Source of the DNA: a bacterium | Lineage (GTDB): Bacteria > Bacillota_I > Bacilli_A > RFN20 > CAG-826 | Length of the DNA: 64,000 nucleotides | Reading direction: 5' to 3' | Assembly (NCBI GenBank): GCA_963638555.1 | Contig: CAVHQU010000001.1 | Coordinates: 169,309 to 233,308 of the forward strand | Shown: positions 12,448 through 63,330 of the stretch, piece after piece | Layout: every line of letters begins with the position of its first letter | Numbering within the stretch: position 1 is the stretch's first letter | Translations under genes and position numbers: made by a program | The notes under the pieces: generated by a model | Database searches by the model: none | Seen by the model: the letters and a program-made list of their open reading frames with translations, nothing else | What the model was told of the DNA's origin: nothing

Positions 12448-12560
12448 TGTTTTTTCTCCTATTCGTTTATCGAGCGTTATTATAAATGCAAAAAATATTT
12501 AGTCATACCTAAATATTAAATATTTAAAAATATTTTGTTTGCATCAAGCTAATTCGAGAA

Positions 12561-13262: not shown

Positions 13263-13283
13263 AGCAATTAAGAATGATAATCC

Positions 13284-15919: not shown

Positions 15920-16419
15920 TCAAAGATGTATTCTTGGCGGTTAGAGTAACCGTCTTTTTTTAATGAAGAATCAAGGAAATTGTATTTCTTTGGCATTAGT
16001 TTTAATAAATGAAGGGACGCGTTCATTTTCTTGATTGTTTCAAGATTGATGCCTTTTCTTTTAGCAATTGAAATAAATTCGTTAGAATCTTCAGATACAA
16101 CTTCTGCAACTGCTTCTATTTGCAAAGAATGAATCGAAGAAAAACCACTGTATGGTTCATATATTGTAGCTGCGACATTCTTATTCTTTTCAAGATATTT
16201 GAATTTAAGCCCACCCTCGGAAAATAGATAGAAACATCCATCATAATAATTATATTCAATTGGAGTACACCTAACTTCTTCTCCATACCCTGTGGCTAAA
16301 GCCATCGTATTGTGATTTAAGATAAAGTCTTCAATCTTCTTAAAGAGTTCTTCTTTTTCGATCTTCTTAGATTGAGCATCTCTCTTGATCCAATATTCAC
16401 TTGCTTCCTTATAATTCAT
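15916..16419 (-). CDS. Pyridoxamine 5'-phosphate oxidase-like FMN-binding protein
   Basis: PNPOx-fold motifs (MALATGYGEEVRCTPIEY...GCFYLFSEGG); start set at internal ATG 16419 with RBS aagagg; the 16512 ORF-track start adds an unsupported extension. Confidence 0.7.
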   Translation of the reverse strand: MNYKEASEYWIKRDAQSKKIEKEELFKKIEDFILNHNTMALATGYGEEVRCTPIEYNYYDGCFYLFSEGGLKFKYLEKNKNVAATIYEPYSGFSSIHSLQIEAVAEVVSEDSNEFISIAKRKGINLETIKKMNASLHLLKLMPKKYNFLDSSLKKDGYSNRQEYIFD

Positions 16420-16516
16420 ACACGCATTACCTCTTTTTGATATTTTAACACATTTACTTCGTTGAATTAGCAGACCAATCTTACTAAAATTTATTAGTCT
16501 TAAAGGAGACAAGTCT

Positions 16517-17251
16517 ATGATTCTATATTACATTCGTCACGGAGAACCTAATTATGAGTTAGATTGTTTAACTCCATTAGGAGAGAAAGAAGCAATTGCT
16601 TTATCAGAATTATTAAAGAAAAAAGGCGTTGATAAGATATATGCTTCAAGCATGGGAAGGGCACAAGCTACCGCTAAGCCTACAGCCGAAGTATTTAATC
16701 TTCCAATCATTTCTTGTGATTGGGCTAGAGAAGATAAAACCTGGGAAAACTACGCGGCTCCAATAGACAATAAAGGAACCACATGGGTATTCTGGATTCC
16801 TAAATGGGTCGAGGAATTCATGTCAGACGAAAGTATGGAAGCAGGATATGAATTCTATAAGCTTCCTGTATACGATGAAATCAATCTTAGAAAAGGGATT
16901 GAAGCAACAGACAAAGCCGTAGATAAGTTCATGTTAGAACTTGGATATGAACATGATCGCAAGCATAAATGCTACAGAGAAATCAAAAAAGACGAAGACC
17001 ATATAGCGTTATTCGCTCATCATGGATTTGGAATGGCCTTCTTGTCTTCTTTGTTAGATATACCATATTCATATTTATCGTTAAGAATAGACATGGGTCA
17101 TACTAATTTCACGGAAATTGAATTTAAAGCAAATGAAAATGGATTGGTATTTCCAAAAATCCTTCATTTAGCAGATGACGCTCATCTATACAAGGAGGAT
17201 TTAGCATTTAATTCTGAACCAACCGCATTATATATCGAGGAGAAGAAATAA
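16517..17251 (+). CDS. Histidine phosphatase family protein (phosphoglycerate-mutase-like)
   Basis: N-terminal catalytic 'YYIRHGEP' RHG motif; 244 aa. Confidence 0.8.
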   Translation: MILYYIRHGEPNYELDCLTPLGEKEAIALSELLKKKGVDKIYASSMGRAQATAKPTAEVFNLPIISCDWAREDKTWENYAAPIDNKGTTWVFWIPKWVEEFMSDESMEAGYEFYKLPVYDEINLRKGIEATDKAVDKFMLELGYEHDRKHKCYREIKKDEDHIALFAHHGFGMAFLSSLLDIPYSYLSLRIDMGHTNFTEIEFKANENGLVFPKILHLADDAHLYKEDLAFNSEPTALYIEEKK

Positions 17252-17252
17252 T

Positions 17253-18350
17253 ATGGAAGAAACAATTCAAGAAGAAAAGAAGCCTTCATTTTGGAAGAAC
17301 CTTAAAGAAAAACTGATGACCACCACAAATGGTATGGCCATAGGTCTTTTTGGAACTTTGATTATTGGAACGATACTAGATTTATTTGCTCAAATACCAT
17401 TCCTTTCGTCTTTATCTAGCTGGACAACCGTCATTAAAGGCTTAATGGGTGCCGGCATTGGTTTAGGTGTTGCTCTCTCATTAAAGAAAAGCGGCGTTGT
17501 CGTTGTAGCATCAATGGCGGCTGGCATGATTGGAAACTATGCATTCTCATTTGCAGATGGATCGGTTTCTTCAATCAGTGATCCCCTTTCTTGCTACATC
17601 AGTTCAGTTCTTTGCCTTTTAGCCATTAAATACATCATGAGAAAGAAGACACCTGTCGATATCATTCTTCTCCCTCTTGTTGGATTGGTTTGTTCCTTGC
17701 TCTACTCCTTCTTATTAGCTACTTATGTTCATTACATTACCGTTGGCTTAGGCTGGATCATCGAAAAGACATTTAACGTTGTTCCATTCTTAATGTGCAT
17801 CTTAATCTCCGTTCTTGTTGGTATGGCGCTTACTGCCCCTATATCCTCAGTGGCAATATGTGTTGCAATCAAGATTGGTGGAACTCCTTTAGCTGCTTAC
17901 GCGGCCTTGATTGGTTGTTGCACCCAAATGGTTGGTTTTGCAGTCCATACAGCAAGAGATAACAAATGGGGCTCAGTTATTGCTGTCGGTATTGGAACAT
18001 CAATGCTTCAATTTAAAAACATCGTTAGAAAACCATTGGTTTGGTTACCGACAATCATTGTTTCAGCAATCTTAGGCCCTCTAGCAATGCTTATGCCAAT
18101 TGAAGATGCTGCTTACTATGCTGAAAATGGATTTACTTCATCATTGTCTGTTGCAGGCGGCATGGGAACATCAGGTTTGGTTGGCCCATTAAATGTTCTT
18201 GCAGCTAATAACTACAACTGGGTTCTTATCATCGAAGTAATTTGTTTCTGCATCATCTTGCCAATCATCTTAGTATTCTTAGTTGATTTATTATTCAGAA
18301 AACTAGGTTGGATTCAAAAAGGCGATTTCTCGCTTAATTCGGACTTATAA
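17253..18350 (+). CDS. Polytopic membrane protein, putative permease
   Basis: 365 aa, ~10 hydrophobic helices, Gly/Ala-rich; family not recognised. Confidence 0.45.
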   Translation: MEETIQEEKKPSFWKNLKEKLMTTTNGMAIGLFGTLIIGTILDLFAQIPFLSSLSSWTTVIKGLMGAGIGLGVALSLKKSGVVVVASMAAGMIGNYAFSFADGSVSSISDPLSCYISSVLCLLAIKYIMRKKTPVDIILLPLVGLVCSLLYSFLLATYVHYITVGLGWIIEKTFNVVPFLMCILISVLVGMALTAPISSVAICVAIKIGGTPLAAYAALIGCCTQMVGFAVHTARDNKWGSVIAVGIGTSMLQFKNIVRKPLVWLPTIIVSAILGPLAMLMPIEDAAYYAENGFTSSLSVAGGMGTSGLVGPLNVLAANNYNWVLIIEVICFCIILPIILVFLVDLLFRKLGWIQKGDFSLNSDL

Positions 18351-18468
18351 AACTATCCCTCTTGCATGAGGGATTTTTAATAGCTTCCTTGCCTTTCTTA
18401 ATAACAAAATAAAGGGTGCGTGTAGCGATATTTAAGCAATTCGTTAGCAATGTAAGCAAAAGAAAAAG

Positions 18469-18493
18469 CGTCTCTGTGCTGAGACGCTTTAAC
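18469..18493 (-). terminator. Rho-independent terminator for lipoprotein gene 18504..20480
   Basis: aagcgtctc-tgtgc-tgagacgctt hairpin, T-run on the minus strand. Confidence 0.65.
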
Positions 18494-18503
18494 AAATATT
18501 AGT

Positions 18504-20480
18504 TTATTCGGCTGTTACAACTTGTGAGAATTCCATCGTAGATGAATCGGAATCACATTCGAGAGTTAAGCCAAGTTTGTCTGCCTTTCCATCAACAAGG
18601 AACATGCTAACACGGCCTTCATCCCAGTTTTTCCAAGAAGAGGAAAAATCAGAGAATGAAATCTCATTTTCATCTAATTCCCATTTGAACGTATCCGTAT
18701 ATTCTTTACCAGAATCGGTGATAGTTTGAACTCTTTCACATGTACCATCAGCAGAGAACTTAAGCGTAACGGAATATCCCCAAATACTAGTATGTGTGAA
18801 TGTATGATTCACTAAGAAATTGGTAAAATTGGTTTGTGAATTGATGACATAGAATTTCTTTTCGACTTTTACTGTTGGGTCAGCTGCTGAAGCCAAAGTA
18901 ATTGTTACCAATCCTTGTTTTTTTGTCGTGATTGTTAATTCTCCGCTAGAGGAAACCTCAACTGTAAGTCTATCTTCATTCGATGAAGTCGCAGTTATTG
19001 GTTCGTTGATTGTGCTTGATGGTTCAGTAGCGTAACGCCATGTATATGTTTTTCCAGAAAGTAAACTTGTTGATCTGTTTCCGATATCAGATGTTGAGCT
19101 AAAGGAAATTGAGGCGATTTGCGCTTTAGTAACGGTGACGCCACTAACAGTGATGCTTGTTAAGTAATAAGCGCCTGTCGTTTCTCTCTTGGCGTAATAT
19201 TCATACGTTAAATCAGCCGTACCCGCGCCAACGATTTCGAAATTGCCTTGATCATCAACTTTAATAACATCTTCGTTTGATGACGCTGAAGCGGTTAATT
19301 GAGTATAAACAGTATTAGCTGGTTCATATTTGTTTGCATAGCCGTAAATTGTTGAATATGAGCTTGAAACGGTTAAGTCTTCAACATCATGGACTTTCCA
19401 ATATGAGTCTTTGGCAGTTAATTTAACCGATGAAACATTCGTAAGGAAATAATCATTTGGATTGATAACATCATCACCAAATCCATCGGTCTTTGTTCCG
19501 TAGGTGATTGTGCCAGACTCTTTTAATGAAGAAAAAGCAGTATCCGTTGGATCGTCGTCCATAGAATATGTGACCTTATTTAAACAATCATACGAAATCA
19601 ATCTTGTCTTAGTGGAATTCATCGTATATTCCGCTTTAAGCTGAGTCGTAACAGTTTGACCGCTTTCAGTGTAAGAATATGTAACATCGATATTGTAATA
19701 GATATCGCCATTTTCTAAGGTAACTGGTGTTACTTTAGTCTTTCCTGTCTGAGCAACATACATATTTTCGACGATATTGCTGCCAATAAAGTTATATAAA
19801 TTGCCAGTTAAGTTTGCAGCTGCATTCGCTTGGAAATCAGATGAAAGAATATATTGAGAGGAGGATAATCCTGCAGCAGTTGCTTCTGCATCAGTATCCA
19901 CTATAAATAGTTTTGAAGCAGAATCTTGATATGCTTGTGGATTCTTGCTTGGATTGCTGTAGTCGGTAACTTTAACGAACATCTCAAATTCGTTTGTTTT
20001 AGAAGAGTCAGTTTCATCTTCATAAGCATCAGTTACTTTTGTTGCGACAGTTTTAAAAGTATCGCTTGTCTCTAATTTTCCATCAACAAGACGTTTGTAG
20101 GTTCCTGTTGAGGAAGATGATCCATCTAAGTAGTTTGTGTATACTTGTTCAGTCGTATTAACAATTGATGTGCTGGAATCAACATTCTTATAAGTAACAC
20201 TTGCGGCATTATTTAATTCTTCTTTTTGAAGTTTGGCGATTTCAGCTAAAGCATCTTCAAATGAAATGGAGTTATCATCGATTGAAGACGATGAAGATTC
20301 GCTACTTGATGAAGACTCAGAAGAGATTTCAGATTCACTTGAAGAGGATTTCTCGCTCGTTGAAGAACTCTCACTTGTGCTATTCTCGGAAGAATTTGCA
20401 TCGACGGACGAATTTGCAGTTCCACATCCAGCAAGTAATATTGCTAATGAGAGTACGCCAATTAATTTAGTTTTTTTCAT
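18504..20480 (-). CDS. Large Ser-rich surface lipoprotein
   Basis: Signal/lipobox 'LAILLAGCGT'; long poly-Ser/Glu linker; 658 aa. Confidence 0.8.
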   Translation of the reverse strand: MKKTKLIGVLSLAILLAGCGTANSSVDANSSENSTSESSSTSEKSSSSESEISSESSSSSESSSSSIDDNSISFEDALAEIAKLQKEELNNAASVTYKNVDSSTSIVNTTEQVYTNYLDGSSSSTGTYKRLVDGKLETSDTFKTVATKVTDAYEDETDSSKTNEFEMFVKVTDYSNPSKNPQAYQDSASKLFIVDTDAEATAAGLSSSQYILSSDFQANAAANLTGNLYNFIGSNIVENMYVAQTGKTKVTPVTLENGDIYYNIDVTYSYTESGQTVTTQLKAEYTMNSTKTRLISYDCLNKVTYSMDDDPTDTAFSSLKESGTITYGTKTDGFGDDVINPNDYFLTNVSSVKLTAKDSYWKVHDVEDLTVSSSYSTIYGYANKYEPANTVYTQLTASASSNEDVIKVDDQGNFEIVGAGTADLTYEYYAKRETTGAYYLTSITVSGVTVTKAQIASISFSSTSDIGNRSTSLLSGKTYTWRYATEPSSTINEPITATSSNEDRLTVEVSSSGELTITTKKQGLVTITLASAADPTVKVEKKFYVINSQTNFTNFLVNHTFTHTSIWGYSVTLKFSADGTCERVQTITDSGKEYTDTFKWELDENEISFSDFSSSWKNWDEGRVSMFLVDGKADKLGLTLECDSDSSTMEFSQVVTAE

Positions 20481-20591
20481 TATGTTATGACCTCCAAAGG
20501 GGTTTCTTAGTGAGACTAAGACTCGTGCATTATATTACAAAAAGAATTAAAGTGTGCTTTTTAATTTCTATATGTATATAATTCTCACGTT

Positions 20592-52093: not shown

Positions 52094-53389
52094 TTAATTT
52101 TTCAAACAACTGATAGGAACAACACAAACCCCATCTTCTCTTCTATAGCATGAACCATGACTCGTTAAAACCATTTTAAATTTTGGCGCCTCATGATTGC
52201 TAGCTACAACCCTTTTCTCAAATAATTTTAAAGAATTAGCTCCTTTTTCTATATTATCGGGGTCTGCCAATTTAATTTCTATTGCACCATATTTGCCATT
52301 TGGCAATTCAACAATGGCGTCTACTTCTTGCCCACTGCTGTCTCTATAGTGTTTAATCGTTGCATCTATAGACTCGGAATATACAGATAAATCTCTGATT
52401 GCAAAATCTTCGAAGAATAAGCCAAATGAATTTAAGTCATTCAGTAGATCGCTTGGATTTATCCCTAAACAAGCAGCCGCAATAGACGTATCAATGAAAT
52501 GATGAGTTGGAGCGTTTCTAACGGAAACAGAGCTTCTCAGATTAAGATTCCAGGCAGGCATATCATAGACAATAAACAAATCCTTCAAAACTTTAACATA
52601 AGTGTCAAACGTATCTTCATCTAGTTTTGATCTATTCCCAGATTCAATAATATCAGATATCATTTTCGTCTTTTTGGCTTGTGTAGATATATTTCTTGCA
52701 TATGATTTTAAAATTAAAGTCAACAGATCAATATTTTTACCTTTTAAAAATAGCGAAAAATCATCATTCTCATCTTCAATCGTGAATAAACCTTTATAAT
52801 AGTTTTTAGTGATACGTATCGCTTGTTCCGGATTGCTAACCTTGCTGGCCAAAGGCCATCCTCCCCTGCAAATTAGATTTGCAATATCGCTCAACGAAAT
52901 AGAATTGTCATAGTCAAATAAATTTTTAAATTCATAATCGTTCTCTTCAAAAAGAGACCTCAAAGAAACAATTCCAAGTGATTCTCCAGACTCATATAAA
53001 GTAAAAGGCTTGAGCGTCATTGAAACTATTCTTCCAGCGCCAGAATGTTGTATTTGTTGTGCACCGACTGGAGTTGTACTTCCAGTGATTATGTATTTTC
53101 CGAAAACATAATCATGGTCCAAATCGCTTTTTATGTAATTCCATATGTCAGGAACTTTTTGCCATTCATCAATCAAATGCGGATACTCGCCAACCAGTGC
53201 GCATCTTGGGTCAGCTTTCGCTAATCCAATGGCATTGGCCGTCTTCAATTCGGTAATCGATTTAGCGTATTGGGTACACATTGTTGATTTTCCGCAAAAT
53301 TTTGGCCCTGTCACCAAAACACAGCCCATTGAACTCAAATTTAATTTCAACGCATCTTCTGCAAGTCTTTTTATATATCTATCTGCCAT
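52094..53389 (-). CDS. AAA-superfamily ATPase with C-terminal DUF4143-type domain
   Basis: Walker A 'VTGPKFCGKST'; ~430 aa architecture typical of 'ATP-binding protein' AAA_14+DUF4143 family. Confidence 0.7.
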   Translation of the reverse strand: MADRYIKRLAEDALKLNLSSMGCVLVTGPKFCGKSTMCTQYAKSITELKTANAIGLAKADPRCALVGEYPHLIDEWQKVPDIWNYIKSDLDHDYVFGKYIITGSTTPVGAQQIQHSGAGRIVSMTLKPFTLYESGESLGIVSLRSLFEENDYEFKNLFDYDNSISLSDIANLICRGGWPLASKVSNPEQAIRITKNYYKGLFTIEDENDDFSLFLKGKNIDLLTLILKSYARNISTQAKKTKMISDIIESGNRSKLDEDTFDTYVKVLKDLFIVYDMPAWNLNLRSSVSVRNAPTHHFIDTSIAAACLGINPSDLLNDLNSFGLFFEDFAIRDLSVYSESIDATIKHYRDSSGQEVDAIVELPNGKYGAIEIKLADPDNIEKGANSLKLFEKRVVASNHEAPKFKMVLTSHGSCYRREDGVCVVPISCLKN

Positions 53390-53440
53390 ATAAGCACCTC
53401 ACATAAAAATTATATTCCTATCTCACTGATAAACAATATT

Positions 53441-53509
53441 ATTTTCGGTGTTTTGAAACTTTTATTTTCGGTGTTTTGAAACTTTTATTTTCGGTGTTTT
53501 GAAACTTTT
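53441..53509. repeat. Perfect 3 x 23-bp direct tandem repeat (attttcggtgttttgaaactttt)
   Basis: Read directly; lies in the promoter region of the minus-strand ATPase gene 52094..53389. Confidence 0.95.
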
Positions 53510-53517
53510 AAATCATT

Positions 53518-53546
53518 AAAAAAGAAAAAAGCTCGTTGACCGAGCT
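53518..53546 (-). terminator. Rho-independent terminator ending the 59.2->53.5 kb minus-strand operon
   Basis: agctcg-ttgac-cgagct hairpin followed (minus strand) by TTTTTTCTTTTT. Confidence 0.75.
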
Positions 53547-53548
53547 TA

Positions 53549-54250
53549 TCATTTCTTGAAATCTTCGTTTACTTTTTTCTCTACTTCATTGCAAATAACT
53601 TGTAATGAGCAGGAATGGCAATCCATTTTTACCTTATTCATCAAATGATCTAACGCTTTAGTAATGTTTTCACATTTCGTTACAATTGCGCTTAGCTCAT
53701 CGTATTTGTATTCATCAAAAGTAACAAAGATTGTCTTAACATTTTTAACAAAAGGGAGTTCTTTGTATTTGGAAATGAAATAATTTCCAAGCTTAGAAAA
53801 ATCTAAATGATCTTTTTTTAAAGAATTTTTAGAAACCAGAAGGCTTTCTTTTTTATTGAAAGCGGATTCTCTAACCATAACACCATCATAAGCAAAATGA
53901 TATTTCACATAGTCAAACTTACGAATGCTGTTATAAAGGACGTTTCCAGAGCCCATAAGGTCGTTATTAACGCTTGCAACGGTAATCCTCGCATAATTCC
54001 CATCGCCGTTAATTGAATTCAAATCTTGACCTATTAGAAGAATCTCATCATCGAATTCAGAATCAGTTAATAAATCGAGAACAACCCCTTTAAATTGGCT
54101 TGCACCTAATTCAAAGGCTTTTTCATTGCTGAAAATTAGTTGATTGTTATTCTCAATAAATGTTTGATTTTGATTGAGAGTTAGTCTTTTTGCTTCGTAT
54201 TTATTGTTGATTTCATTAACGTCATTAACTAAATCATCAAAAATAAACAT
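53549..54250 (-). CDS. Hypothetical protein with C-terminal CxxC motif
   Basis: 233 aa; 'DCHSCSLQVIC' near C-terminus; last gene of the HgdCAB-like operon; no family recognised. Confidence 0.5.
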   Translation of the reverse strand: MFIFDDLVNDVNEINNKYEAKRLTLNQNQTFIENNNQLIFSNEKAFELGASQFKGVVLDLLTDSEFDDEILLIGQDLNSINGDGNYARITVASVNNDLMGSGNVLYNSIRKFDYVKYHFAYDGVMVRESAFNKKESLLVSKNSLKKDHLDFSKLGNYFISKYKELPFVKNVKTIFVTFDEYKYDELSAIVTKCENITKALDHLMNKVKMDCHSCSLQVICNEVEKKVNEDFKK

Positions 54251-54252
54251 AA

Positions 54253-54471
54253 CTAGATTTTACGGTTTCTTTTCTTCTTGTCGTAGATCTTTGTTAAAAG
54301 AGGCTCCAAAGAAGAAGTTAATTTCATATCTAAGTTGAAGAAATAGATAATGAACAATAAGCCAAAGAGAGCAATGAATGCGCCAATGACCGTGCAAAGG
54401 ATGCTAATCCACAAAGCCCAGTTCAGATATGGGAAAAGTGTCCAGCTTAAGACAATTAAAGCGGTACCCAT
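54253..54471 (-). CDS. Small 2-TM membrane protein (72 aa)
   Basis: Two hydrophobic helices + basic tail KKKRNRKI; tightly packed between activase gene and 53549..54250. Confidence 0.5.
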   Translation of the reverse strand: MGTALIVLSWTLFPYLNWALWISILCTVIGAFIALFGLLFIIYFFNLDMKLTSSLEPLLTKIYDKKKRNRKI

Positions 54472-54473
54472 AT

Positions 54474-55280
54474 TTATCTTCCTCCTGCTAAGCCTTTTTG
54501 ACGGGCATATTCAGCAGCACCTAAAGCGCCCATTAATTGAGGATCGATAGGGAGGTTGACAACCTTTAAGTGTAAAACCTTTTCAATCGCGTCTTTTAAG
54601 CCATCGTTTTTAGCACAGCCACCAGTTAAGGTAATGTTATCAACTGCTCCAGCTTTCTTTGCCATGACGAAGCATCTTTTTGCAACTGAGAATTCAATGC
54701 CTGCAGCAATTTCGTCCATTGGTTTTCCTTCACCAACTAATGAGATAACTTCGGATTCAGCAAAAACCGTGCATTGAGCAGTGATAGGAATAATATTCTT
54801 TGCTTTCAAAGAAAGTTTTGAGAAAGTGTCTAAATCCATCTCGAAGGCTCTAGACATCGCTTCAAAGAATCTTCCTGTGCCAGCAGCGCATTTATCATTC
54901 ATAGCGAAATTAAGGACTGTTCCATCCGTATCAACGGCAATGCCTTTAACGTCTTGCCCACCAATATCAATAATTGCTTTGACGTTTGGATCAGTAACGT
55001 GGACACCCATCGCGTGGCAGGAAATCTCAGAAATATTTTCATCCGCAAAAGGAACTTTGTTTCTGCCATATCCTGTGCCAACCAAGTAAGATAAGTCTTT
55101 AGGGGAATTTAATCCTTCGACTTGAACAATTGCTTGATCTAAAGCATCTTGAGCGCTTAAAACGGAATTAATTCTGCTTCTTAAGGTAACATTTGCTACC
55201 ATCTTACCAGTTTCGTCGACAATAACGCATTTTGTATAGGTACTGCCGGAATCACAACCACCAAAATATTTCATATTCAT
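54474..55280 (-). CDS. 2-hydroxyacyl-CoA dehydratase activator (HgdC/BadF/BadG/BcrA/BcrD ATPase family)
   Basis: ASKHA fold 'YFGGCDSGSTYTKCVIVD'; cluster-ligand motif 'NDKCAAGTGRFFE' as in HgdC; ~268 aa. Confidence 0.85.
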   Translation of the reverse strand: MNMKYFGGCDSGSTYTKCVIVDETGKMVANVTLRSRINSVLSAQDALDQAIVQVEGLNSPKDLSYLVGTGYGRNKVPFADENISEISCHAMGVHVTDPNVKAIIDIGGQDVKGIAVDTDGTVLNFAMNDKCAAGTGRFFEAMSRAFEMDLDTFSKLSLKAKNIIPITAQCTVFAESEVISLVGEGKPMDEIAAGIEFSVAKRCFVMAKKAGAVDNITLTGGCAKNDGLKDAIEKVLHLKVVNLPIDPQLMGALGAAEYARQKGLAGGR

Positions 55281-55288
55281 TTATCTCC

Positions 55289-56836
55289 TTACCATGATTT
55301 TGCATCATCAATAACTTCTAAGCTTGGATCAACAGGTTCTTCTCTCATGACAGAGCGCATATATCTGTTAACTTGATCCCTAACGCCTTGTTTAGAAATG
55401 ACACGTGGGTCCATTAAATCGTGATCGACCCAAACGAGTTTGATACCATGTTCTCTAGCACGTTGTTCAAACATACCATGCATGCCATCGAGAGCTTTAC
55501 AAGAAATGTGTTCCCACAGAATAACCATATCGGCCTTGTAGTAATCGCAGAACTTCCAAAGATCATCAAGTAAGACTTCATAGCCACCATGGGTTCTGTT
55601 TCTCATAATCATCTCTTCATAAAGTTTAGCGATATCGTATATTGCTTGTTCAGGATCATCTTCTGAAATCTCGTCAAAGTAGCAGAGAGAAAGCATATCG
55701 ACTAATGGAACGATTCCCCAGCAGTTTTGAAGCCATGGGAGGAAGTCCGTATAGAATTGAGATTGAACGCCCCAGATGATTGCTCTATGACGCATCTCTT
55801 TGCAAACCATTGCTTTTCTCTTATAAGCTTTTTCAGCAAGCTTTGTAATCTTTCTATCAGCCTTAACGAAGTCATCGGAGCGACCGGCAACAGCCATGTA
55901 TGTTGTTTCAGAATATAAAGCTAAGTTAGCACCAAAGACTTGTGGGTAATCCGTTCTAGACATTTCCATCCAGGATTTACGAAGCCTTGTTTCTTCGTTG
56001 AAGCGTTTAGCACATTTGAAATAGTTATCCCAATTCCATTTTTCACCAGTTTTTTCTTCAATGAATTTGATAGCGTTTCTGATTTCTTGTGCAGCATATT
56101 CTTGAACGCCTTCTTCAGTATGTCTAAGAGGTGCAGCAATTTGGAAAGTAGGAACACCAAATTCTTCATATTTTTTACCCATGATGCCATTTCCCATCAA
56201 AGATCCATCACATGTTGTGTTACATTGAACGGCGCATGCGCCATAAATTGGCATATCTTCGTCAACTGCGCAGCCAGCTTCAGCGGCAGGCATTGGGCAA
56301 ACGTCGCCAGGAATACCCATTTCCTGAAGAACATCAAGATAGTGAGTGACAGCCATTGGATTTAATAAGACAGAGACATATACGGCTGCAGTTTCCCAAC
56401 TAACAGCATATAAGTTAGGGAAACCACACATGACGTGGAACATTTCGTTTTCATCAAGAACAACGCATTTCTTAGAGAATTTTTCATTATTTCCACATCT
56501 TTTATCTGCTTTGAATACTCTCGTTAAAAGTTGAGCAATATCTAGAGCAACCAAATCATATTCAGTATGAGCGATTCTAAGTGCTTCCTTTCTCAAACCC
56601 GTCGTATGTTTATCAATCATCATCGGGACAGCTAGATAGTTAAGCATCCATCTGTATCTAAAGAAACCTTTTAAATTATTTGGCTTAACGATGAATTTAG
56701 CCAACATCCACATGATTTTAAGCCAGCATCTGAAGTCATAGAAAGTGTCTACGAAGCCTCTCCACTCTCTTCTCTTTCTGACTTTTTTTCCGTTATAAAG
56801 CTTTCCTAAGGCTTCGGAACCTACTTTTGCTCCCAT
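55289..56836 (-). CDS. 2-hydroxyacyl-CoA dehydratase / benzoyl-CoA-reductase-like D-component, large (HgdA-like) subunit
   Basis: 515 aa; HGD-D family hallmarks (Cys-rich 'CPMPAAEAGCAVD...ACAVQCNTTCDGS', 'KFCDYYK'); shares its stop/start position with the next gene. Confidence 0.75.
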   Translation of the reverse strand: MGAKVGSEALGKLYNGKKVRKRREWRGFVDTFYDFRCWLKIMWMLAKFIVKPNNLKGFFRYRWMLNYLAVPMMIDKHTTGLRKEALRIAHTEYDLVALDIAQLLTRVFKADKRCGNNEKFSKKCVVLDENEMFHVMCGFPNLYAVSWETAAVYVSVLLNPMAVTHYLDVLQEMGIPGDVCPMPAAEAGCAVDEDMPIYGACAVQCNTTCDGSLMGNGIMGKKYEEFGVPTFQIAAPLRHTEEGVQEYAAQEIRNAIKFIEEKTGEKWNWDNYFKCAKRFNEETRLRKSWMEMSRTDYPQVFGANLALYSETTYMAVAGRSDDFVKADRKITKLAEKAYKRKAMVCKEMRHRAIIWGVQSQFYTDFLPWLQNCWGIVPLVDMLSLCYFDEISEDDPEQAIYDIAKLYEEMIMRNRTHGGYEVLLDDLWKFCDYYKADMVILWEHISCKALDGMHGMFEQRAREHGIKLVWVDHDLMDPRVISKQGVRDQVNRYMRSVMREEPVDPSLEVIDDAKSW

Positions 56837-58026
56837 TATTTTTTGCCTCCTTGAATCTTCTTAATCTCAATGCTTTCAACGAAAGCTTGAACTCTGGTTC
56901 TAATTTGTCCAGATGAACCAACAGCATATGGTCTATCAATAGAGAGAACAGGGTAGTTGTAATCGTCTCTAAGCATATGGGTGCCAGTCATTCTTTCGTA
57001 TGCCCATGGGTCACAGAATTTCATTTGCTCATAAATAATTCCATCGGCATGGTAATCTTTAGCAATTTGATTAACATATTCTTTTCTTTGTCTGAATTTT
57101 GGAAGATTCATATGGCGTGGGCACATGCATGAATGCATGTATTGGGCACATATTTGGGTTAGTACATCTTCATTGTCGTTAAGGATGATTTCTTGTCTTC
57201 CTGGAAGAGAACCGAAACAATATCTGTCAGCAACAACAAGGGCGCCAGATTCTTCAATGAGTTTAATCATATCGACATCATCAACTTCTGATCCGACGAC
57301 AGCAACCTTTGCACGGTATTTCTTTTTTGCATCTGGAACGCGTGTTTTTACTTCTTCAAGAGTCTCCTCAAGTTTATCGATTAATAAGTAATGAGGGCAG
57401 ACGTATGTGCACATGGTGATGATATGGAACTCATATCCAGTGATACGTGGGTTCTCTTCTTTTCTAAATTCACCTAGTTCGGTTATGATGCGGCAAATCT
57501 TGTTATGCTCCTTAACTGCTTCTCTTAAAGCATCATCAGAAACGTCTATTCCAAAATGTTCATGCAAAGAGTTTAAAATCTTCTTGCGGCATTCAGAAAC
57601 GTATAAGTTCAAGCCGTTATCATCGTCCTTCATAGGAACTTCTAGATATTCGTAGAAGAAATTATCTGCTGGCATTGTTTTGAGTAATTCCATGTTTTCA
57701 ACACAGCGATTGATCATTGAACAGCCATCAGGCGTAAAAAGGCAATCAAGATATTGATATCCGCCTTCGATAGCTCTTTCTAATAACGCTCTCGTATATT
57801 CACATAAAAAGGAGGTCATATAGTATGTCCCCATCTCAAGAGAGCCGGTACGTGGAGCTCTTAAACGTGAGGAGAAGCATCCTTTGAGGTTAAGAAGAAC
57901 TTCAGGAATTTGCGAGCATGTCGTGCCAAGGCACTTAAGCCCTTCTTCTTTTGCTTGTCTTACTAGATCATTATTCGCGTTATCTAGTAATTGCTCGAAA
58001 TAATACAAATGTTTTAAATCTTTCAT
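56836..58026 (-). CDS. 2-hydroxyacyl-CoA dehydratase-like D-component, small (HgdB-like) subunit
   Basis: 396 aa; 'CLGTTC', 'MKFCDPWAYE' and other HGD-D family features. Confidence 0.75.
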   Translation of the reverse strand: MKDLKHLYYFEQLLDNANNDLVRQAKEEGLKCLGTTCSQIPEVLLNLKGCFSSRLRAPRTGSLEMGTYYMTSFLCEYTRALLERAIEGGYQYLDCLFTPDGCSMINRCVENMELLKTMPADNFFYEYLEVPMKDDDNGLNLYVSECRKKILNSLHEHFGIDVSDDALREAVKEHNKICRIITELGEFRKEENPRITGYEFHIITMCTYVCPHYLLIDKLEETLEEVKTRVPDAKKKYRAKVAVVGSEVDDVDMIKLIEESGALVVADRYCFGSLPGRQEIILNDNEDVLTQICAQYMHSCMCPRHMNLPKFRQRKEYVNQIAKDYHADGIIYEQMKFCDPWAYERMTGTHMLRDDYNYPVLSIDRPYAVGSSGQIRTRVQAFVESIEIKKIQGGKK

Positions 58027-58036
58027 TTTGACCTCC

Positions 58037-58804
58037 TTATAATATTCCTAATTTTTCTAATGCAATTTTTGTGTTCTTAACGATATTTGAATCTTCGTTA
58101 AGAGAGAATACTGAATTGCCCTCAACATCCGAGAGCATCATTTCTTTGTCATCTGGAATTACGCTCAATAAGTTTAACGATTCGAGATTAAGTTTATTGA
58201 TATCTACTGTTTCGCTAACACGATTAAGAATCAATCCATCAGTTTCGTACATGACTAATTCTTTAGCAACCTTCTTTATCGTTTTTGTTACTTCAATGCC
58301 TTTCTTAGACGCATCGGAAACAAGAACTAGATGGGTGACCTTCTCCATTACTCTGCGATTAACTTGCTCAATACCCGCTTCACCATCAATAACCACATAA
58401 TCAAAATTATTGGCAAGAAGGCTTATTACTTCTTTGAGATAAGCGTTAACCTTGCAATAACATCCACTCGCTTCAGGACGACCTATAGCGAGGAAGGAGA
58501 TATTGTCTATTTCAACTAAAGCATCAAAGATTTGGTATTTTGCTTCGGAGAGAATTTCCAGAGCTGCTTTTGAGTCTCCATTCTCCGCATGTTCAATGAA
58601 TAACTTTCTTATATCATCTACCGTTGAAGATGAATTAACGCCTAACGCTGTCGCTAATCCAATGGCAGGATCAGCATCAATGGCTAAAATTTTCTTATCT
58701 GGATATTTTTCATGGAGCAATCTAACAGACAAGGCAGAAATTGAAGTCTTACCGACTCCACCTTTTCCACAAAAGGCTAATATAACTGGCTTACTCATAA
58801 TCAT
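58037..58804 (-). CDS. CooC/AcsF-type MinD-superfamily ATPase with CxC metal-binding motif
   Basis: Deviant Walker A 'FCGKGGVGKTS'; 'AIDADP'; 'GRPEASGCYCKVN' CxC motif characteristic of CooC-type nickel-insertion ATPases. Confidence 0.7.
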   Translation of the reverse strand: MIMSKPVILAFCGKGGVGKTSISALSVRLLHEKYPDKKILAIDADPAIGLATALGVNSSSTVDDIRKLFIEHAENGDSKAALEILSEAKYQIFDALVEIDNISFLAIGRPEASGCYCKVNAYLKEVISLLANNFDYVVIDGEAGIEQVNRRVMEKVTHLVLVSDASKKGIEVTKTIKKVAKELVMYETDGLILNRVSETVDINKLNLESLNLLSVIPDDKEMMLSDVEGNSVFSLNEDSNIVKNTKIALEKLGIL

Positions 58805-58995
58805 TTCTCATCTACATGGACAATAACGTATCCATCCACGAGGTTAGCTTTGGAGAGAATACCTTTTATTTCCACCTTTCTTTCCATCAAATCGGTGAAG
58901 ATTAATGAGTTTTGCTTCATTTCAATACTCATAACATTCTTCATCAAGATGTTTTTATCATCTATTTTGTCTTTATAAATCGTTGATAAACACAT
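58801..58995 (-). CDS. CooT-like small protein (N-terminal Met-Cys)
   Basis: 64 aa, begins 'MC', beta-rich, length and pattern resemble the CooT nickel-binding accessory protein; 4-bp overlap with CooC-like gene. Confidence 0.45.
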   Translation of the reverse strand: MCLSTIYKDKIDDKNILMKNVMSIEMKQNSLIFTDLMERKVEIKGILSKANLVDGYVIVHVDEK

Positions 58996-59005
58996 ATATG
59001 GTTCC

Positions 59006-59212
59006 TTATTTCTTTAATTCTTTCAAAGCCAATGAAAGAGATTTGTTGCCTTCCTCGAAAGAATTAATCGCATCTTCAACTTCTGCGTAAGCATCAGAAT
59101 TAACATCTTTTAAAGAATTGGCCAAATCTTGCAATTCTTCATTGTGATGTTCATTATGATTAATCATGTAATTAATGAGAGCAATGAGTTCTTCTTTATT
59201 GTTCGTTTCCAT
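59006..59212 (-). CDS. Small His-rich helical protein (68 aa), putative metal-binding
   Basis: 'MINHNEHHNEELQD' His cluster; first gene of the operon. Confidence 0.4.
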   Translation of the reverse strand: METNNKEELIALINYMINHNEHHNEELQDLANSLKDVNSDAYAEVEDAINSFEEGNKSLSLALKELKK

Positions 59213-59418
59213 AAAAATGACTCCAGGAATATATCATTATCATTTTATCGATAACTTTTTATCGAAATATACTTTATCACTTTCTGCCTTGCTTTATCAA
59301 GAAAATATCGAACTTTTTTGCGAAATTAGTACAGTTTAAAATGTTTGTTATTGCTAACCTTTTAAAAGGGGTAACCAGATCGCTAATAAATAAGTAAAAT
59401 ACTCAGGAGGTTTATTTT

Positions 59419-61194
59419 ATGAAAAAATGTTTAGGAATATTATTGTCAGGATTGTTTGTCCTTGGAGCGGTTTCTTGTTCAAATGAAACATCATCAAGCA
59501 GTCTTTCAAGTGAAGAATTGAGTCAAAAGAGCGTGAGCGTGTATCTAAATTCGCTTGATAAAACAGCTTCTGTAAATCTTCATTTCTATGATAAGGATGA
59601 ACAAATTCCATATATTGAGATGGATGATGCATTCAGGATCCGTAAAGCGTTATTTGATTCAGGAACAACTTATGAAACGCCAAATAAATCAACATACGAA
59701 ATAGCTAGAGACGGATCTCAATATACCGTCACGATTAACAAACGTGGAACGGCTACATTCGATATTGAAAATCAAACTCTAACAATTCCAAACTTGGGTT
59801 TAGTCCAAGCGTACTCATATAACGACACTCCATATGATATTTTATGCATGGATTCATCCTCTTCTTCGATTCATTATGTAACTCATCAGAAAAATGGCGA
59901 CAGTCTTAGAGCCTATGCATATATGGGCAATGAAATGGTTATTTCCCTTAAAGAATACAGCATACCTGTATATGAAAAAGATAATAAAGCGTATATTCCA
60001 TTAGATCTCTTCAACAACTTCTTTTTAAGCTATACGTATAACAATTTCGTCTATAACGGAGATGCTATATTTACATTCACCGGTCTTGATAATCCATCTG
60101 AAGAATATTTAAATAATTTCTATTTTTGTTCAAATGCTAAAAAGAAAAGAAGCAAAGAATTAGCTGAGTTCTCATACAATTCATTAATGCTCAACCTTAA
60201 TTACCAATACGGACTAAAAGAAAGACATTCATTTGGCGATTTTAGAAAAGAATTTAAAGATTTAGGATTAGAGGATTCTTTAAAATCCACAGACGAAAAA
60301 GAATACATGTCTGGCATATTTAAGTTTATTTACAACGCATTTGGCGATGGCCATTGTTCATTTCAAAGAAGAAGTCCATACTCTACAGCAAACATTTACG
60401 ATGAAGTAAGAGCATCAGCTAAGTCTTACGTCAATATTGGTTATGTTGAATTGATAAAATCATTAACTGAAAATGGAACATTCCGTTCTTCTGCCGCTGA
60501 AACAAATCCAGATTATGGAAAATGCTATTACGAAGACGGAGATACAGCCTATGTTAGATTTGATAAATTTTCTATGTTAAGCGAAATTCCAGATTATTAT
60601 CAAAACGCACCGACAGGTGATGAAACAGATCTATTTGGTGTAATTATATATGCAAATAAAAAGATTAAAGAAAACTCTGCAATTAAAAATGTTGTAGTTG
60701 ATATGGCCACAAACAGAGGTGGAGAAGAACCTTCATTAATATTTGCTCTCGGATGGTTATTAGGCAATGATGCAAGAGTTTCTCTTAAAAATCCTGTTAC
60801 TAACTGCGCATCAACCATTTATTACAATGCTGATGTAAATCTTGACGGGAAATATGATGTCACGAACGATACTCTTGAAGGATATAACAAATTCATTCTT
60901 ACATCTCATTCATCCTTCTCCTGTGGTAACGCATTCCCTTGTTTTGCAAAAGCTAGTGAAAAAGTAAAAATCATTGGTCAAACATCTGGCGGAGGAGCGT
61001 GTCAAGTTTTCCCTCTTGTGACAACGGATGGCACAGTAATCAATATTTCAGGCGGTGGAGTCCTATGTACAGAAAAGAACTCTCATTACGAGGACATTGA
61101 TGATGGCGCCACACCTGACTTCACTATAACCGAAACAGCGAACATATTTGATCGCGCATACACAACAAAGGTCGTTCATTCATTAGTTCTTTAA
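59419..61194 (+). CDS. Lipoprotein, S41 peptidase-like domain (paralog of 10666..12447)
   Basis: Lipobox 'LGAVSCSN'; 'AFGDGHCSFQ', 'TNRGGEEPSLIFALGWLLG', 'SFSCGNAFP', 'IIGQTSGGG' align with the paralog. Confidence 0.6.
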   Translation: MKKCLGILLSGLFVLGAVSCSNETSSSSLSSEELSQKSVSVYLNSLDKTASVNLHFYDKDEQIPYIEMDDAFRIRKALFDSGTTYETPNKSTYEIARDGSQYTVTINKRGTATFDIENQTLTIPNLGLVQAYSYNDTPYDILCMDSSSSSIHYVTHQKNGDSLRAYAYMGNEMVISLKEYSIPVYEKDNKAYIPLDLFNNFFLSYTYNNFVYNGDAIFTFTGLDNPSEEYLNNFYFCSNAKKKRSKELAEFSYNSLMLNLNYQYGLKERHSFGDFRKEFKDLGLEDSLKSTDEKEYMSGIFKFIYNAFGDGHCSFQRRSPYSTANIYDEVRASAKSYVNIGYVELIKSLTENGTFRSSAAETNPDYGKCYYEDGDTAYVRFDKFSMLSEIPDYYQNAPTGDETDLFGVIIYANKKIKENSAIKNVVVDMATNRGGEEPSLIFALGWLLGNDARVSLKNPVTNCASTIYYNADVNLDGKYDVTNDTLEGYNKFILTSHSSFSCGNAFPCFAKASEKVKIIGQTSGGGACQVFPLVTTDGTVINISGGGVLCTEKNSHYEDIDDGATPDFTITETANIFDRAYTTKVVHSLVL

Positions 61195-61246: not shown

Positions 61247-61735
61247 TTATTCGAGGAGTCCTTTAATTGTTGTGCCTTTATAGGCAAATGTATACGAAGT
61301 TGAACTTGAAAAATCAACTGTGAATGCGACTAAAACATTTGGATGAGTTATAACTGTCGCATTTTCATCTATTGCATCAATTGTTGTTGTATCTGATCTC
61401 TTAGTTATATAAACCTTTTTGCCTTCAGTTCCAGCAGTGAATTGCCATCCATCAACAATTCCGTACGATGATGTTGTTTTGCCATCAATGGTAACCGTGA
61501 AATCATCTTTAGAAACTGTAACAGCTTTGCCAGTTCTATTTGCGACGCTAAATGTAGTTACGTAAATTGGTGTACTATCAGTTTCGCTAGCATTCATTTT
61601 TTGACAAAATTCACTAGATGTTGAATCGCTCTTTGAGAAAACTATATTTCCTGAATTTCCACCCATGCCATTACAGGAGGCTAACATTATCGGTAATCCA
61701 AGTAATCCGATCATCATTTTGATTGTTTTTTTCAT
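61247..61735 (-). CDS. Small lipoprotein
   Basis: Lipobox 'IMLASCNG'; 162 aa. Confidence 0.75.
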   Translation of the reverse strand: MKKTIKMMIGLLGLPIMLASCNGMGGNSGNIVFSKSDSTSSEFCQKMNASETDSTPIYVTTFSVANRTGKAVTVSKDDFTVTIDGKTTSSYGIVDGWQFTAGTEGKKVYITKRSDTTTIDAIDENATVITHPNVLVAFTVDFSSSTSYTFAYKGTTIKGLLE

Positions 61736-61962: not shown

Positions 61963-63330
61963 ATGAAAAAATCTAATCTTATTTTATTAACATTACTTAG
62001 CACCACATTATTCTCATGCGGAGGAAACGATTCGTTAGATTCCACTGAATCCTCGTCAGCACAAGATGAAATCGTTGATGTTCTTCCTGATGGATATACA
62101 AATTCCGTCAAGGATTATTTGAAGGCATTAAAGAGCATCCACAACTACACAATCTCTGAAACGGTTTCTTCCACTGCAGCTACGTATGAAAACTATATTG
62201 TCGCCAAATATGATACAAAATCCTACTACTATGATTTCGGTTCAAATTCCTATGGATATATTCAATCCGACGATGGCGTGTATGCAGTTAACATCAAAAA
62301 TGACTCTTTAATTGGCGGAGAAATTTATCATGATGATGAAGGGAACGCTTATAAAGATTTATGGGGTCATGATTTCTTCAAAAGCTTTGCTTCATTAGAT
62401 GAGGAACAATTAGAAACAATTCCCGATGGAACAGTTGACGTATCTCTCAAAGGAAAGAAAAACAAACTAGCAATTCTTTCTATATTAGGGCTTGATTCGT
62501 CTTATTATGCAGGCATCGCATCAATGAAAGCGTCAATAAGTTCCAGCAACGCTTTAGGAATTAGCATCGAGATTGAAGATTCATCTGGTGCCACAATCAC
62601 AGTCGATTCAGTCGTATATGCTTTATTAACCACCAAAAACACGGAAATAGATGAATTCCTTGCCAATGGTGGAACATATTACGTTATCGACTCAGATTTC
62701 GCAAAAGCAAGAACTCTTATGAAGGGTAATAACTATACGCATAACTATTACTACAATAAGAAAATCGTTGGTGTTGAATATTTCAACGAGAACTACTACT
62801 TCGTCAACTGGGATTCATCCTATGTTGCTGAAACAGGCCAAATATTAGTTAATCAAGGCCTTATTGGCATCGATCATAAAAAAGATAGCAATGGCAATGC
62901 CTTAAATGGCGCATATCTTGTCACATTGAATAATGGTCAATTTAGCATAAGCCTCTCTTTCTATTACAATGAAGATCCAAACATTCCTACCGTATATCAT
63001 TACCCATCACTTATGTATATGTGGGACAATCCTGAATTCTTTGAAATGGATGAAACCCCATCAGATTTAGACGCATACTTCACAACCGATGACACCATCA
63101 TGATGAATAACTTCATTGAAAACTTCTCAATGTCTAGTCAAGTTGCTGACGTTAATGTCAGATCTCTCTCCATTGGTTGGAAAGATATTGAAGATGATTC
63201 AAACACCTCAAGAATTGTTCGTTTCTGCCTCTCGACAAGTGGAGGAGACGTCACTTATGATTTCTGCAATTTTGGAACGACAAATATCCCTGCATTCGAT
63301 TCGTTCTTAGCAGGTTTATCAGACCAATAA
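61963..63330 (+). CDS. Lipoprotein
   Basis: Lipobox 'TLFSCGG'; 455 aa. Confidence 0.8.
   Translation: MKKSNLILLTLLSTTLFSCGGNDSLDSTESSSAQDEIVDVLPDGYTNSVKDYLKALKSIHNYTISETVSSTAATYENYIVAKYDTKSYYYDFGSNSYGYIQSDDGVYAVNIKNDSLIGGEIYHDDEGNAYKDLWGHDFFKSFASLDEEQLETIPDGTVDVSLKGKKNKLAILSILGLDSSYYAGIASMKASISSSNALGISIEIEDSSGATITVDSVVYALLTTKNTEIDEFLANGGTYYVIDSDFAKARTLMKGNNYTHNYYYNKKIVGVEYFNENYYFVNWDSSYVAETGQILVNQGLIGIDHKKDSNGNALNGAYLVTLNNGQFSISLSFYYNEDPNIPTVYHYPSLMYMWDNPEFFEMDETPSDLDAYFTTDDTIMMNNFIENFSMSSQVADVNVRSLSIGWKDIEDDSNTSRIVRFCLSTSGGDVTYDFCNFGTTNIPAFDSFLAGLSDQ

Follow-up and report, generated by a model that had tools for sequence, protein, structure and literature searches.

We describe an operon of eight genes, g1 to g8, in a 64,000-nucleotide stretch of DNA from a bacterium of the CAG-826 lineage (contig CAVHQU010000001.1 of assembly GCA_963638555.1; the whole of this stretch is called the window here), in which the genes for a predicted ATP-dependent iron-sulfur reductase are bracketed by genes for nickel-chaperone-like proteins and for a protein derived from acetyl-CoA synthase (ACS). 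In our assessment there is about an even chance that g1 to g8 work as one unit and represent a new subtype of the ATP-dependent archerase Fe-S enzymes, the class I benzoyl-CoA reductase (BCR), 2-hydroxyacyl-CoA dehydratase (HAD) and double-cubane cluster protein (DCCP) group, with an accessory set that probably serves nickel. The proposal builds on the observed identities of the genes, the conservation of their ligand residues, their synteny and their modularity. The archerase/double-cubane family is itself known; an accessory set made up of nickel-chaperone-like and ACS-derived proteins is unprecedented in the literature searched. Among open-access papers and bioRxiv preprints no paper was found that joins HGD-D/archerase enzymes with CooC, CooT or an ACS domain, and a description elsewhere is possible. 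The combination is likewise absent from the curated family models, no NCBIfam equivalog exists for g1, g2, g3, g7 or g8, and public records give the orthologues generic names only. An earlier reading of the window, made from its sequence alone and referred to here as the original prediction, had presented the combination as undescribed, and the searches agree with it on this point.

The reductase core is encoded by g4, g5 and g6. Both g4 and g5 belong to the HGD-D family (PF06050; 294 and 134 bits, respectively, with a cut-off of 28.4), and g6 scores above the cut-offs with PF01869 (BcrAD_BadFG; 192 bits) and TIGR00241 (216 bits; cut-off 125), as expected of the HgdC-type activase with a DKCAAGTG motif that had been predicted. 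In g6, C131, within DKCAAGTG, and C170 are invariant, and g6 is the most conserved gene of the set, 78-97% identical over all loci. The best NCBIfam model for g4 is double_cubane (NF040772), at 143 bits and under the cut-off of 350, and the BzdN model, TIGR03190, gives 92 bits, under a cut-off of 454; since both equivalog cut-offs are missed, g4 is a relative of these proteins and not an orthologue. Its best matches in the PDB are BzdN (8s02_B), DCCP (7yyl/6eno) and HadC. Six cysteines of g4, C37, C75, C102, C270, C302 and C338, do not vary among about 50 orthologues or in paralogues. Their spacing agrees with that of the [8Fe-9S] ligands of BzdN, Cys36, Cys73, Cys100, Cys263, Cys293 and Cys327 (PMC11971306), and with the DCCP motif (PMC7317905), minus the one cysteine of that motif that is not a ligand. 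On the strength of its sequence, g4 is predicted to hold a double-cubane [8Fe-9S] cluster. Two other cysteines in the helical intermediate domain of g4, C178 and C210, are also invariant, distant paralogues included; BzdN has no cysteine at the position of C178, and the region of C210 aligns with a Cys-free stretch.

The AlphaFold2 (AF2) model of g5 (mean predicted local distance difference test score, pLDDT, 88) finds its best structural matches in BzdO (8s02_A; E 4e-14), HadB (3o3m_A), MbdO and DCCP. The invariant cysteines C180, C209 and C446 correspond to the BzdO ligands Cys95, Cys128 and Cys380; C180 and C446 are aligned with two cluster ligands of g4, C75 and C338, and C209 stands three residues ahead of g4 C102. 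A nickel site or a second cluster in g5 was considered and dropped, because C201 and C205 are clade-specific and lost in distant paralogues, and because C372, kept in more than 90% of the sequences (including the paralogues checked), is placed by hhalign where a helix ends ahead of a strand and not at the double-cubane ligand C270. The protein also carries a family-specific, helical N-terminal extension of about 120 residues. Within residues 1-120, the motif (K/H)REWRG-x2-DT-x-YD is strictly conserved and the aromatic residues W38, Y61, W63 and Y67 are invariant; the motif holds across two sub-families that are only about 40% identical and has no counterpart in BzdO, HadB or DCCP. Possibly, the extension is a docking surface or a lid on a channel.

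The original prediction had named g4 and g5 as HgdB- and HgdA-like subunits, respectively, of a radical dehydratase. Two HGD-D subunits are indeed present; a specific likeness to HgdAB is not borne out. The six-Cys set of g4, together with scores for the HadB and HadC equivalog models that fall far under their cut-offs (22.5 and 85.5 bits versus 750 and 700), makes "reductase of the BzdNO/DCCP type" a better label than "radical dehydratase". By these features the core is predicted to be built like BzdNO, with a double-cubane, electron-storing subunit, a 3-Cys catalytic subunit and one archerase gene, and ATP-dependent electron transfer and catalysis are predicted for g4 to g6. With BzdNO (PDB 8s02; PMC11971306) the system shares a heterodimer, here predicted, of two HGD-D paralogues, an ASKHA-type ATP-dependent activator encoded alongside, the near-identical spacing of six [8Fe-9S] ligands in g4, and three [4Fe-4S] ligands in g5, whose closest fold is BzdO. 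In contrast, identity in the structural alignments is only 13-17%, the equivalog models stay far under cut-off, one activase gene takes the place of the BzdP/BzdQ pair, the N-terminal extension of g5 is unique, and the operon is without aromatic-CoA pathway genes. To our knowledge, CooT, a CooC-type ATPase, an ACS-domain protein and a small membrane protein occur in no BCR cluster. The system also resembles DCCP and its reductase DCCP-R (C. hydrogenoformans CHY_0487/0488; 6eno, 7yyl; PMC7317905, PMC9351452), in its six coordinating cysteines, its ATP-dependent reductase and its two-component design, and DCCP-Ch has an N-terminal extension that may close the substrate channel, as g5 is also extended. 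DCCP, however, is a homodimer with the double-cubane cluster as its active site, whereas the operon encodes a predicted heterodimer in which catalysis would fall to a second, 3-Cys subunit; g4 lacks the seventh, non-ligand cysteine of the DCCP motif, and DCCP is without nickel-chaperone or ACS-like partners.

Three genes for chaperone-like proteins stand at the 5' end of the operon. The profile check places g2 in the CooT family, as had been predicted (PF10133; 54 bits, cut-off 27, E 2e-14, profile positions 1-59 of 60); the protein begins MCLSTIY, and Cys2, the nickel ligand in characterized CooT, is invariant in 51 orthologues. The Pfam matches of g3 are generic (CbiA/AAA_31, of the MinD type, plus ArsA), and no NCBIfam model is matched at its cut-off, but its closest solved relative is CooC1 of C. 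hydrogenoformans (3kje; E 5e-15, 58.7 bits). The segment ASGCYCKVN of g3 aligns with GSQCYCREN of CooC1, CxC over CxC, the two cysteines (C115-Y-C117) are invariant in 54 orthologues, a deviant Walker A motif, GKGGVGKT, is found at residues 13-20, and IMG names the orthologues "CO dehydrogenase maturation factor". The predicted CooC-type assignment thus holds, by P-loop and CxC; binding or insertion of Ni(II) by g3 is a prediction. In none of the loci examined is g3 linked genetically to carbon monoxide dehydrogenase (CODH) or to a complete ACS; its only link of this kind is to the ACS A2-domain protein g8. In g1, the residues H19, N20 and H23 are invariant and E26 is kept in at least 90-97% of 48 orthologues, forming the motif H19-N20-x2-H23-x2-E26, and several orthologues, in some lineages only, have His-rich N-termini (MAHHHE, MEEKHTHIHNHNH, MGEHHNHIHNH). 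Orthologues of g1 have a precomputed match to PF26551 (DUF8180), and a g1 profile finds no solved relative in the PDB, CooJ included, its matches being designed helical bundles only. The site of CooJ is H(W/F)xxHxxxH plus a His-rich tail; with HNxxHxxE as the motif of g1 and a profile search that does not return CooJ, the identification of g1 as CooJ was rejected, and the resemblance is functional at most. We presume that g1 is a metal-binding, perhaps nickel-binding, accessory protein.

At the other end of the operon, g8 had been described in the original prediction as a CxxC protein; the cysteine motif is there, and the homology to ACS had been missed. Family profiles of g8 match only ACS chains in the PDB (E 7e-5 for close relatives, profile A1; E 7e-12 for 52 diverse representatives, profile A5), and the alignment covers residues 331-482 of M. 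thermoacetica ACS, its middle (A2) domain. The ACS-homologous part of g8 spans residues ~38-195. The top 20 Foldseek matches of the AF2 model (pLDDT 89.5) in the PDB are all ACS (E 1e-7), and g8 orthologues score 23-46 bits with Pfam CdhC (PF03598), most of them over the cut-off of 24 (46 bits for the orthologue at locus L004); the g8 of the window, searched alone, has no Pfam match, an E value of 0.1 not being reached. The family, of 567 clusters at 50% identity, consists nearly throughout of stand-alone proteins of about 235 residues. Across 52 representatives, with identities as low as 20%, nothing is invariant but the three cysteines of C211-x2-C214-x5-C220, which lie in a tail of low model confidence that ends 13 residues past C220. 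The CxxC occupies about the position at which A2 gives way to the first A-cluster cysteines in ACS, which is suggestive only: its equation with Cys506/509 of ACS was rejected, for the HMMER alignments end about 20 residues before the motif and an ungapped extrapolation is about 5 residues off. Like ACS (AcsB/CdhC), g8 has an A2 domain by profile, by fold and by the CdhC matches of its orthologues; unlike ACS, it has CxxCx5C in place of CxxCx8Cx9C and the Cys-Gly-Cys that binds the two A-cluster nickels, and it is not accompanied by genes for CODH, the corrinoid iron-sulfur protein or a methyltransferase. Lacking the A3 domain and the full set of A-cluster ligands, g8 is not an acetyl-CoA synthase. 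Its ACS identity strengthens the nickel reading all the same. As a whole, the accessory set recalls the CooC/CooT/CooJ and AcsF maturation systems in that the CooT-family g2 has Cys2, the CxC of g3 aligns with CooC1, a helical His-motif protein takes the position of the third chaperone, and, as with AcsF and ACS, the ATPase is genetically paired with an ACS-derived protein. It differs from them in being without CODH or a complete ACS, in that g8 is an A2 domain plus three cysteines, and in the modest similarity of g3 to CooC1. Between g6 and g8, in most loci, lies g7, a small protein with two hydrophobic stretches and a conserved tail, F-x2-Y-x2-N-x-D-M-K, whose residues F40, Y43, N46, D48, M49 and K50 are at least 97% conserved; it matches no family in Pfam or NCBIfam.

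A scan of genomes with the g8 alignment yielded 62 loci; in metagenomes, a more distant g8 sub-family used as the query had more than 600 matches, and 80 of them, mostly from the human gut, were kept. The order g3-g4-g5-g6-(g7)-g8 is found in about 35 of the 40 assessable genome loci and in about 20 of 21 assessable metagenome loci, and g1 and g2 precede g3 in about 40 loci. The co-occurrence of HGD-D and CxC-bearing CooC genes, for which the original prediction had proposed a check of neighborhood conservation, is seen in most of these assessable loci, and since the same genes recur in the same order in those loci the arrangement is far beyond chance. The loci range in GC content from 26 to 60% and have unrelated flanks, nucleotide similarity to the window ends at 53546-53556 and at 59213, the borders of the operon, and gene order is kept across clades that are only about 30-40% identical in g5 and g8. 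In loci L005-L035, the identity to the proteins of the window is 72-97% for g3 to g6, 52-78% for g1 and 58-86% for g8. One g5 cluster alone holds 5440 member sequences; the operon is very common in human-gut metagenomes and abundant in human-gut and rumen Firmicutes. Loci L005-L035 come from metagenome-assembled genomes (MAGs) labelled "H0xxxx-L1_cleanbin", which carry near-identical operons under widely differing taxonomic names, among them Bacteroides uniformis, Alistipes communis, Faecalibacterium prausnitzii, Parasutterella and Hallerella; the explanation is either unreliable labelling or horizontal mobility of the operon. Further relatives bear the labels Bacilli, Erysipelotrichaceae or Anaeroplasmataceae, and the GC content of the window is 36%. 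Lachnospiraceae bacterium A10 and AC2012 are candidate carriers in culture.

The exceptions to the common order reveal how the operon is put together. In L052 the genes are rearranged (g4 g5 g6 g7 g2 g3 g8), with g1 missing and the other seven kept. Elsewhere g1 g2 g3 g8 occur alone (L042, L046, L054), as do g2 g3 g8 (L058), while L040 has g1 g2 g3 g6 g8 and L145 has, between the genes for IMPDH and TruA, only g3 and g8; g3 and g8 stay adjacent when the unit is split (L042, L046, L054, L058). Members of the distant clade often have one or two additional, paralogous HGD-D pairs behind a single g3/g6/g8 set (L086, L148, L149, L111, L146; for example, at 11065-13880 and 17551-20495 on the minus strand of L148), the g5-type subunits of which are 33-36% identical to each other. 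This suggests that several catalytic specificities share one accessory set. The variants point to two modules, a catalytic pair that can be multiplied and a maturation/activation set that has the CooC-like and ACS-like proteins as its irreducible core.

In the mechanism that we envisage, a dimer of g6 would spend ATP to push a low-potential electron into g4, by homology with BzdNOPQ and DCCP/DCCP-R. Electrons would be stored by g4 on its putative double-cubane [8Fe-9S] cluster, as in BzdN, and would pass to g5, whose 3-Cys, open-iron [4Fe-4S] site, like those of BzdO and HadB, would convert a substrate resistant to reduction. Meanwhile, g1 and g2 would hand Ni(II) to a dimer of g3, which, at the cost of ATP, would insert nickel into a Cys-ligated site of g8, or of g8 docked on the g4/g5 heterodimer. 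Such an insertion would parallel the maturation of the ACS A-cluster by the CooC homologue AcsF, a CooC-type ATPase that reportedly inserts nickel into ACS. The proposal of nickel delivery builds on what the chaperones are, on the origin of g8 in a nickel enzyme and on AcsF and ACS as a model; nickel in the mature enzyme, g8 as its acceptor, the direction of electron flow and the joint action of all eight proteins are what we infer. A more specific version, possible rather than probable in our view, is that the operon encodes a new class of Ni-Fe-S enzyme, in which the ACS-derived g8 carries, or helps to build, a nickel site of cysteines that is matured by its own CooC/CooT/His-protein set and driven to a very low potential by an ATP-dependent archerase via a double-cubane cluster. 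Few enzyme types are known to use nickel, and every addition to them has brought new chemistry; archerases, powered by ATP, reach some of the lowest redox potentials known in biology, and the part that double-cubane proteins play in the cell is still largely to be settled. If the proposal is true, it would be the first link of the BCR/HAD/DCCP radical-enzyme family to nickel biochemistry, and if nickel is involved, a new metalloenzyme and a new maturation route would be at work in dominant gut anaerobes. Even without nickel, the operon would encode a widespread BzdNO-like reductase.

Several points weigh against nickel or against the unity of the operon. The putative nickel dependence is read from gene content, and no nickel transporter was seen in the flanks examined. 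The sequence of g5 gives no sign of an extra metal site. Domains A1 and A3 and the Cys-Gly-Cys motif are absent from g8, its tail lies outside the supported ACS alignment, and its CxxCx5C could equally bind an ordinary [4Fe-4S] cluster. Moreover, the operons of L004, L049, L061 and most of the distant human-gut clade have neither g1 nor g2, and the HGD-D pair stands alone in some Oscillospiraceae-type contigs of an abundant lineage (L067-L070). The main rival explanation, which we consider unlikely, dispenses with nickel and has g3 and g8 assemble or insert the [8Fe-9S] or another Fe-S cluster, in the manner of NifH or of the MinD ATPases of the Mrp/NBP35 type. These ATPases share a P-loop group with g3, which has weak Fer4_NifH and ParA/NUBPL matches; a CxC bridging a dimer could hold a cluster, the three invariant cysteines of g8 would suit a 3-Cys [4Fe-4S] site, g1 and g2 are dispensable in several lineages, and g4 does need a complex cluster. 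BzdNO, however, acquired its double-cubane cluster in E. coli without a CooC-like helper (PMC11971306), and DCCP was likewise overproduced in E. coli (PMC7317905), so that a dedicated assembler is not generally needed. In addition, the motif of g3 is the CxC of CooC and not the CxxC of Mrp/NBP35, g3 has a His-motif protein and a CooT, the latter with an invariant Cys2, at its side in about 40 loci, and g8 descends from a nickel enzyme.

That g3 and g8, with g1 and g2, would instead form a sensor or regulatory device, such as a nickel-, CO- or redox-responsive switch that gates the reductase, with no part in cofactor biosynthesis or catalysis, strikes us as improbable. Such a role would suit the ability of the g3-g8 pair to stand alone between housekeeping genes (L145, L058), the much faster evolution of g8 and g1 than of g3 to g6 in L005-L035, and a low-confidence tail of g8 that may need a partner in order to fold. 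By Pfam and NCBIfam, however, no DNA-binding or signaling domain is present in any of the eight proteins, operon position and translational coupling suggest stoichiometric partners, and we know of no precedent for CooC or CooT as sensors, which counts against this role. Just as improbable, to our minds, is that two unrelated systems lie side by side, the CooT, CooC and ACS-like genes maturing a nickel enzyme encoded elsewhere and the HGD-D and activase genes being independent of them. The two modules do occur at separate loci in some lineages (L042, L046, L054 and L058 versus L067-L070), an orphan HypB in the window indicates that nickel handling is not confined to the operon, and a putative nickel module of an IsrA-like protein with HypA and HypB adjoins the operon in L049, L061 and L132. 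Yet the reductase genes are bracketed by the accessory genes, g1 to g3 on the 5' side and g8 on the 3' side, their order is kept over GC contents of 26-60% and in distant clades, L052 is reshuffled and still retains seven of the eight genes (g1 is missing), and no other nickel enzyme (CODH, full ACS, hydrogenase or urease) is encoded in any flank examined. An ordinary 2-hydroxyacyl-CoA dehydratase of amino-acid fermentation (HgdCAB/HadIBC) with incidental neighbors would explain the HGD-D domains, the HgdC-type activase and the presence of HadB and HadC among the structural relatives. We think this very improbable in view of the HadB and HadC equivalog scores far under cut-off, the six cluster cysteines of g4 (as in BzdN and DCCP) versus three in HadC, the lack of a CoA-transferase or 2-hydroxyacid dehydrogenase gene in any locus examined, the operon flanks in the window included, and the family-specific extension of about 120 residues in g5.

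Table 1. The eight genes of the operon and the signals around them, in positions of the window
Feature	Position	Strand	Description
g1	59006-59212	(-)	68-aa helical protein, HNxxHxxE motif
g2	58801-58995	(-)	64 aa, CooT family
g3	58037-58804	(-)	255 aa, CooC-type MinD-family ATPase
g4	56836-58026	(-)	396 aa, BzdN/DCCP-type HGD-D subunit
g5	55289-56836	(-)	515 aa, BzdO/HadB-type HGD-D subunit, predicted catalytic
g6	54474-55280	(-)	268 aa, HgdC/DCCP-R-type ATP-dependent activase (archerase)
g7	54253-54471	(-)	72 aa, small hydrophobic/membrane protein
g8	53549-54250	(-)	233 aa, ACS middle (A2)-domain homologue with CxxCx5C tail
Intrinsic terminator	53517-53547	(-)	AAGCTCG-GTCAA-CGAGCTT hairpin (53547-53529 region), 7-bp stem, 5-nt loop, then TTTTTCTTTTTT T-run
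Promoter-like site	59271-59300	(-)	TTGATA, 18-nt spacer, TAAAGT, TG extension; from a consensus scan
Candidate operator	59249-59264	no strand	Perfect palindrome CGATAA-N4-TTATCG, 37-52 nt upstream of the g1 ATG

All eight genes were confirmed on the minus strand at 53549-59212 (Table 1), where the original prediction had placed a tightly packed, same-strand set closed by a terminator. From the coordinates of the open reading frames (ORFs), the junctions from g1 to g8 measure +10, -4, +10, -1, +8, +2 and +2 nt, no gap exceeding 10 nt, and the hairpin with its T-run begins 2 nt past the stop codon of g8. Promoter-like sites are as numerous in the region as expected from shuffled sequences, and the sole support for the one listed is its place upstream of g1. 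The palindrome between this site and g1 has a wider form, TCGATAA-N4-TTATCGA, and the pattern YGATAANNNNTTATCR occurs once in the 64-kb window, at the g1-upstream site, versus 0.05 occurrences expected. If one mismatch at most is allowed, 18 of 43 related loci have the palindrome 25-95 nt upstream of g1, and these make up 18 of all 35 such matches in 968 kb. Its 7-4-7 geometry resembles that of Rex boxes, and its half-sites those of Fur boxes with one extra spacer base. Of the gene families in the flanks, only that of the Fur-type regulators comes back in distinct lineages (7 loci): its gene is 3.2 kb upstream in L001, L002 and L063, grouped in L001 with rubrerythrin and desulfoferrodoxin genes, and about 0.9 kb downstream of g8 in L017, L021, L025 and L027. 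As a regulator of the operon, the Fur-family protein was considered and set aside as unproven: a match to the palindrome within the FUR gene is conserved coding sequence, and the candidate operator is spaced 6-4-6, versus the classical 6-3-6 of Fur. An Rfam search of 53000-60000 gave no riboswitch (for example, NiCo) at E <=1.

Around the operon, neither the listed ORFs of 120 aa or more at 40.8-53.4 kb nor the three large ORFs at 59.4-63.3 kb have a CoA-transferase, CODH or hydrogenase domain by Pfam, and the original prediction is upheld in this respect. No hydrogenase or urease turned up in the part of the window whose ORFs were scanned with Pfam, and a survey of the flanks for clues to the substrate returned generic or housekeeping genes only. 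An intact HypB, also predicted earlier, is encoded at 3868-4632 on the plus strand (TIGR00073; 234 bits, cut-off 121), between an XRE-type regulator and an unannotatable 257-aa ORF (3282-3893 and 4675-5448), and tblastn over the 64-kb window detected neither HypA nor an IsrA-like gene. This orphan HypB may work for the operon, at a distance of 49 kb, or for a different nickel enzyme encoded elsewhere.

An IsrA-like module adjoins the operon in L049 (1166-4351), L061 (556-4434) and L132 (~14600-18400). It consists of HypB, a 945-aa NfnB/GltD-like Fe-S flavoprotein whose N-terminal 300 residues are unannotated, and HypA, with a TetR gene in L049, and the operons next to it are without g1 and g2. 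In L049 and L061, HypA is directly upstream of g3, following the flavoprotein (and HypB in L061), with a gap of 2 nt to g3 in L049. Homologues of IsrA, a putative isoprene reductase, have HypA as a neighbor in 73% and HypB in 56% of cases (PMC10134865). HypA and HypB were therefore rejected as independent proof of nickel delivery, the IsrA-type module normally carrying its own, and HypA next to g3 is counted as adjacency only. The IsrA-type flavoproteins resemble the present system as an uncharacterized family of anaerobes that travels with nickel chaperones and no known nickel enzyme; they differ in belonging to an unrelated family (NfnB/GltD-like, ~945 aa), in having HypA/HypB instead of CooC/CooT, and in being absent from the window.

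Genes for nucleoside and nucleotide salvage (nucleoside 2-deoxyribosyltransferase, uridine kinase, thymidine kinase and a cytidylate-kinase-like gene) are found near the operon in at least three lineages, at about 0.3 kb upstream of g1 in L001-L003 and L063, at 1070-2290 in L004, at 4449-5656 in L040 and at 3309-5035 in L148; their presence could be chance, or a faint hint at the substrate. An iron-containing alcohol dehydrogenase is encoded at 257-1402 of the window, 52 kb from the operon, and the same gene (70-77% nucleotide identity) occurs within the 10-kb operon flank in L033, L035, L042 and L065. Two large S41-peptidase-like proteins are encoded at 10666-12447 (minus strand) and 59419-61194 (plus strand); like several other ORFs (61247-61735, 61963-63330), they have lipoprotein-type signal starts (LASCNG, FSCGG). 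Most of the ORFs with such signals match no family, and the window is rich in unannotatable surface proteins.

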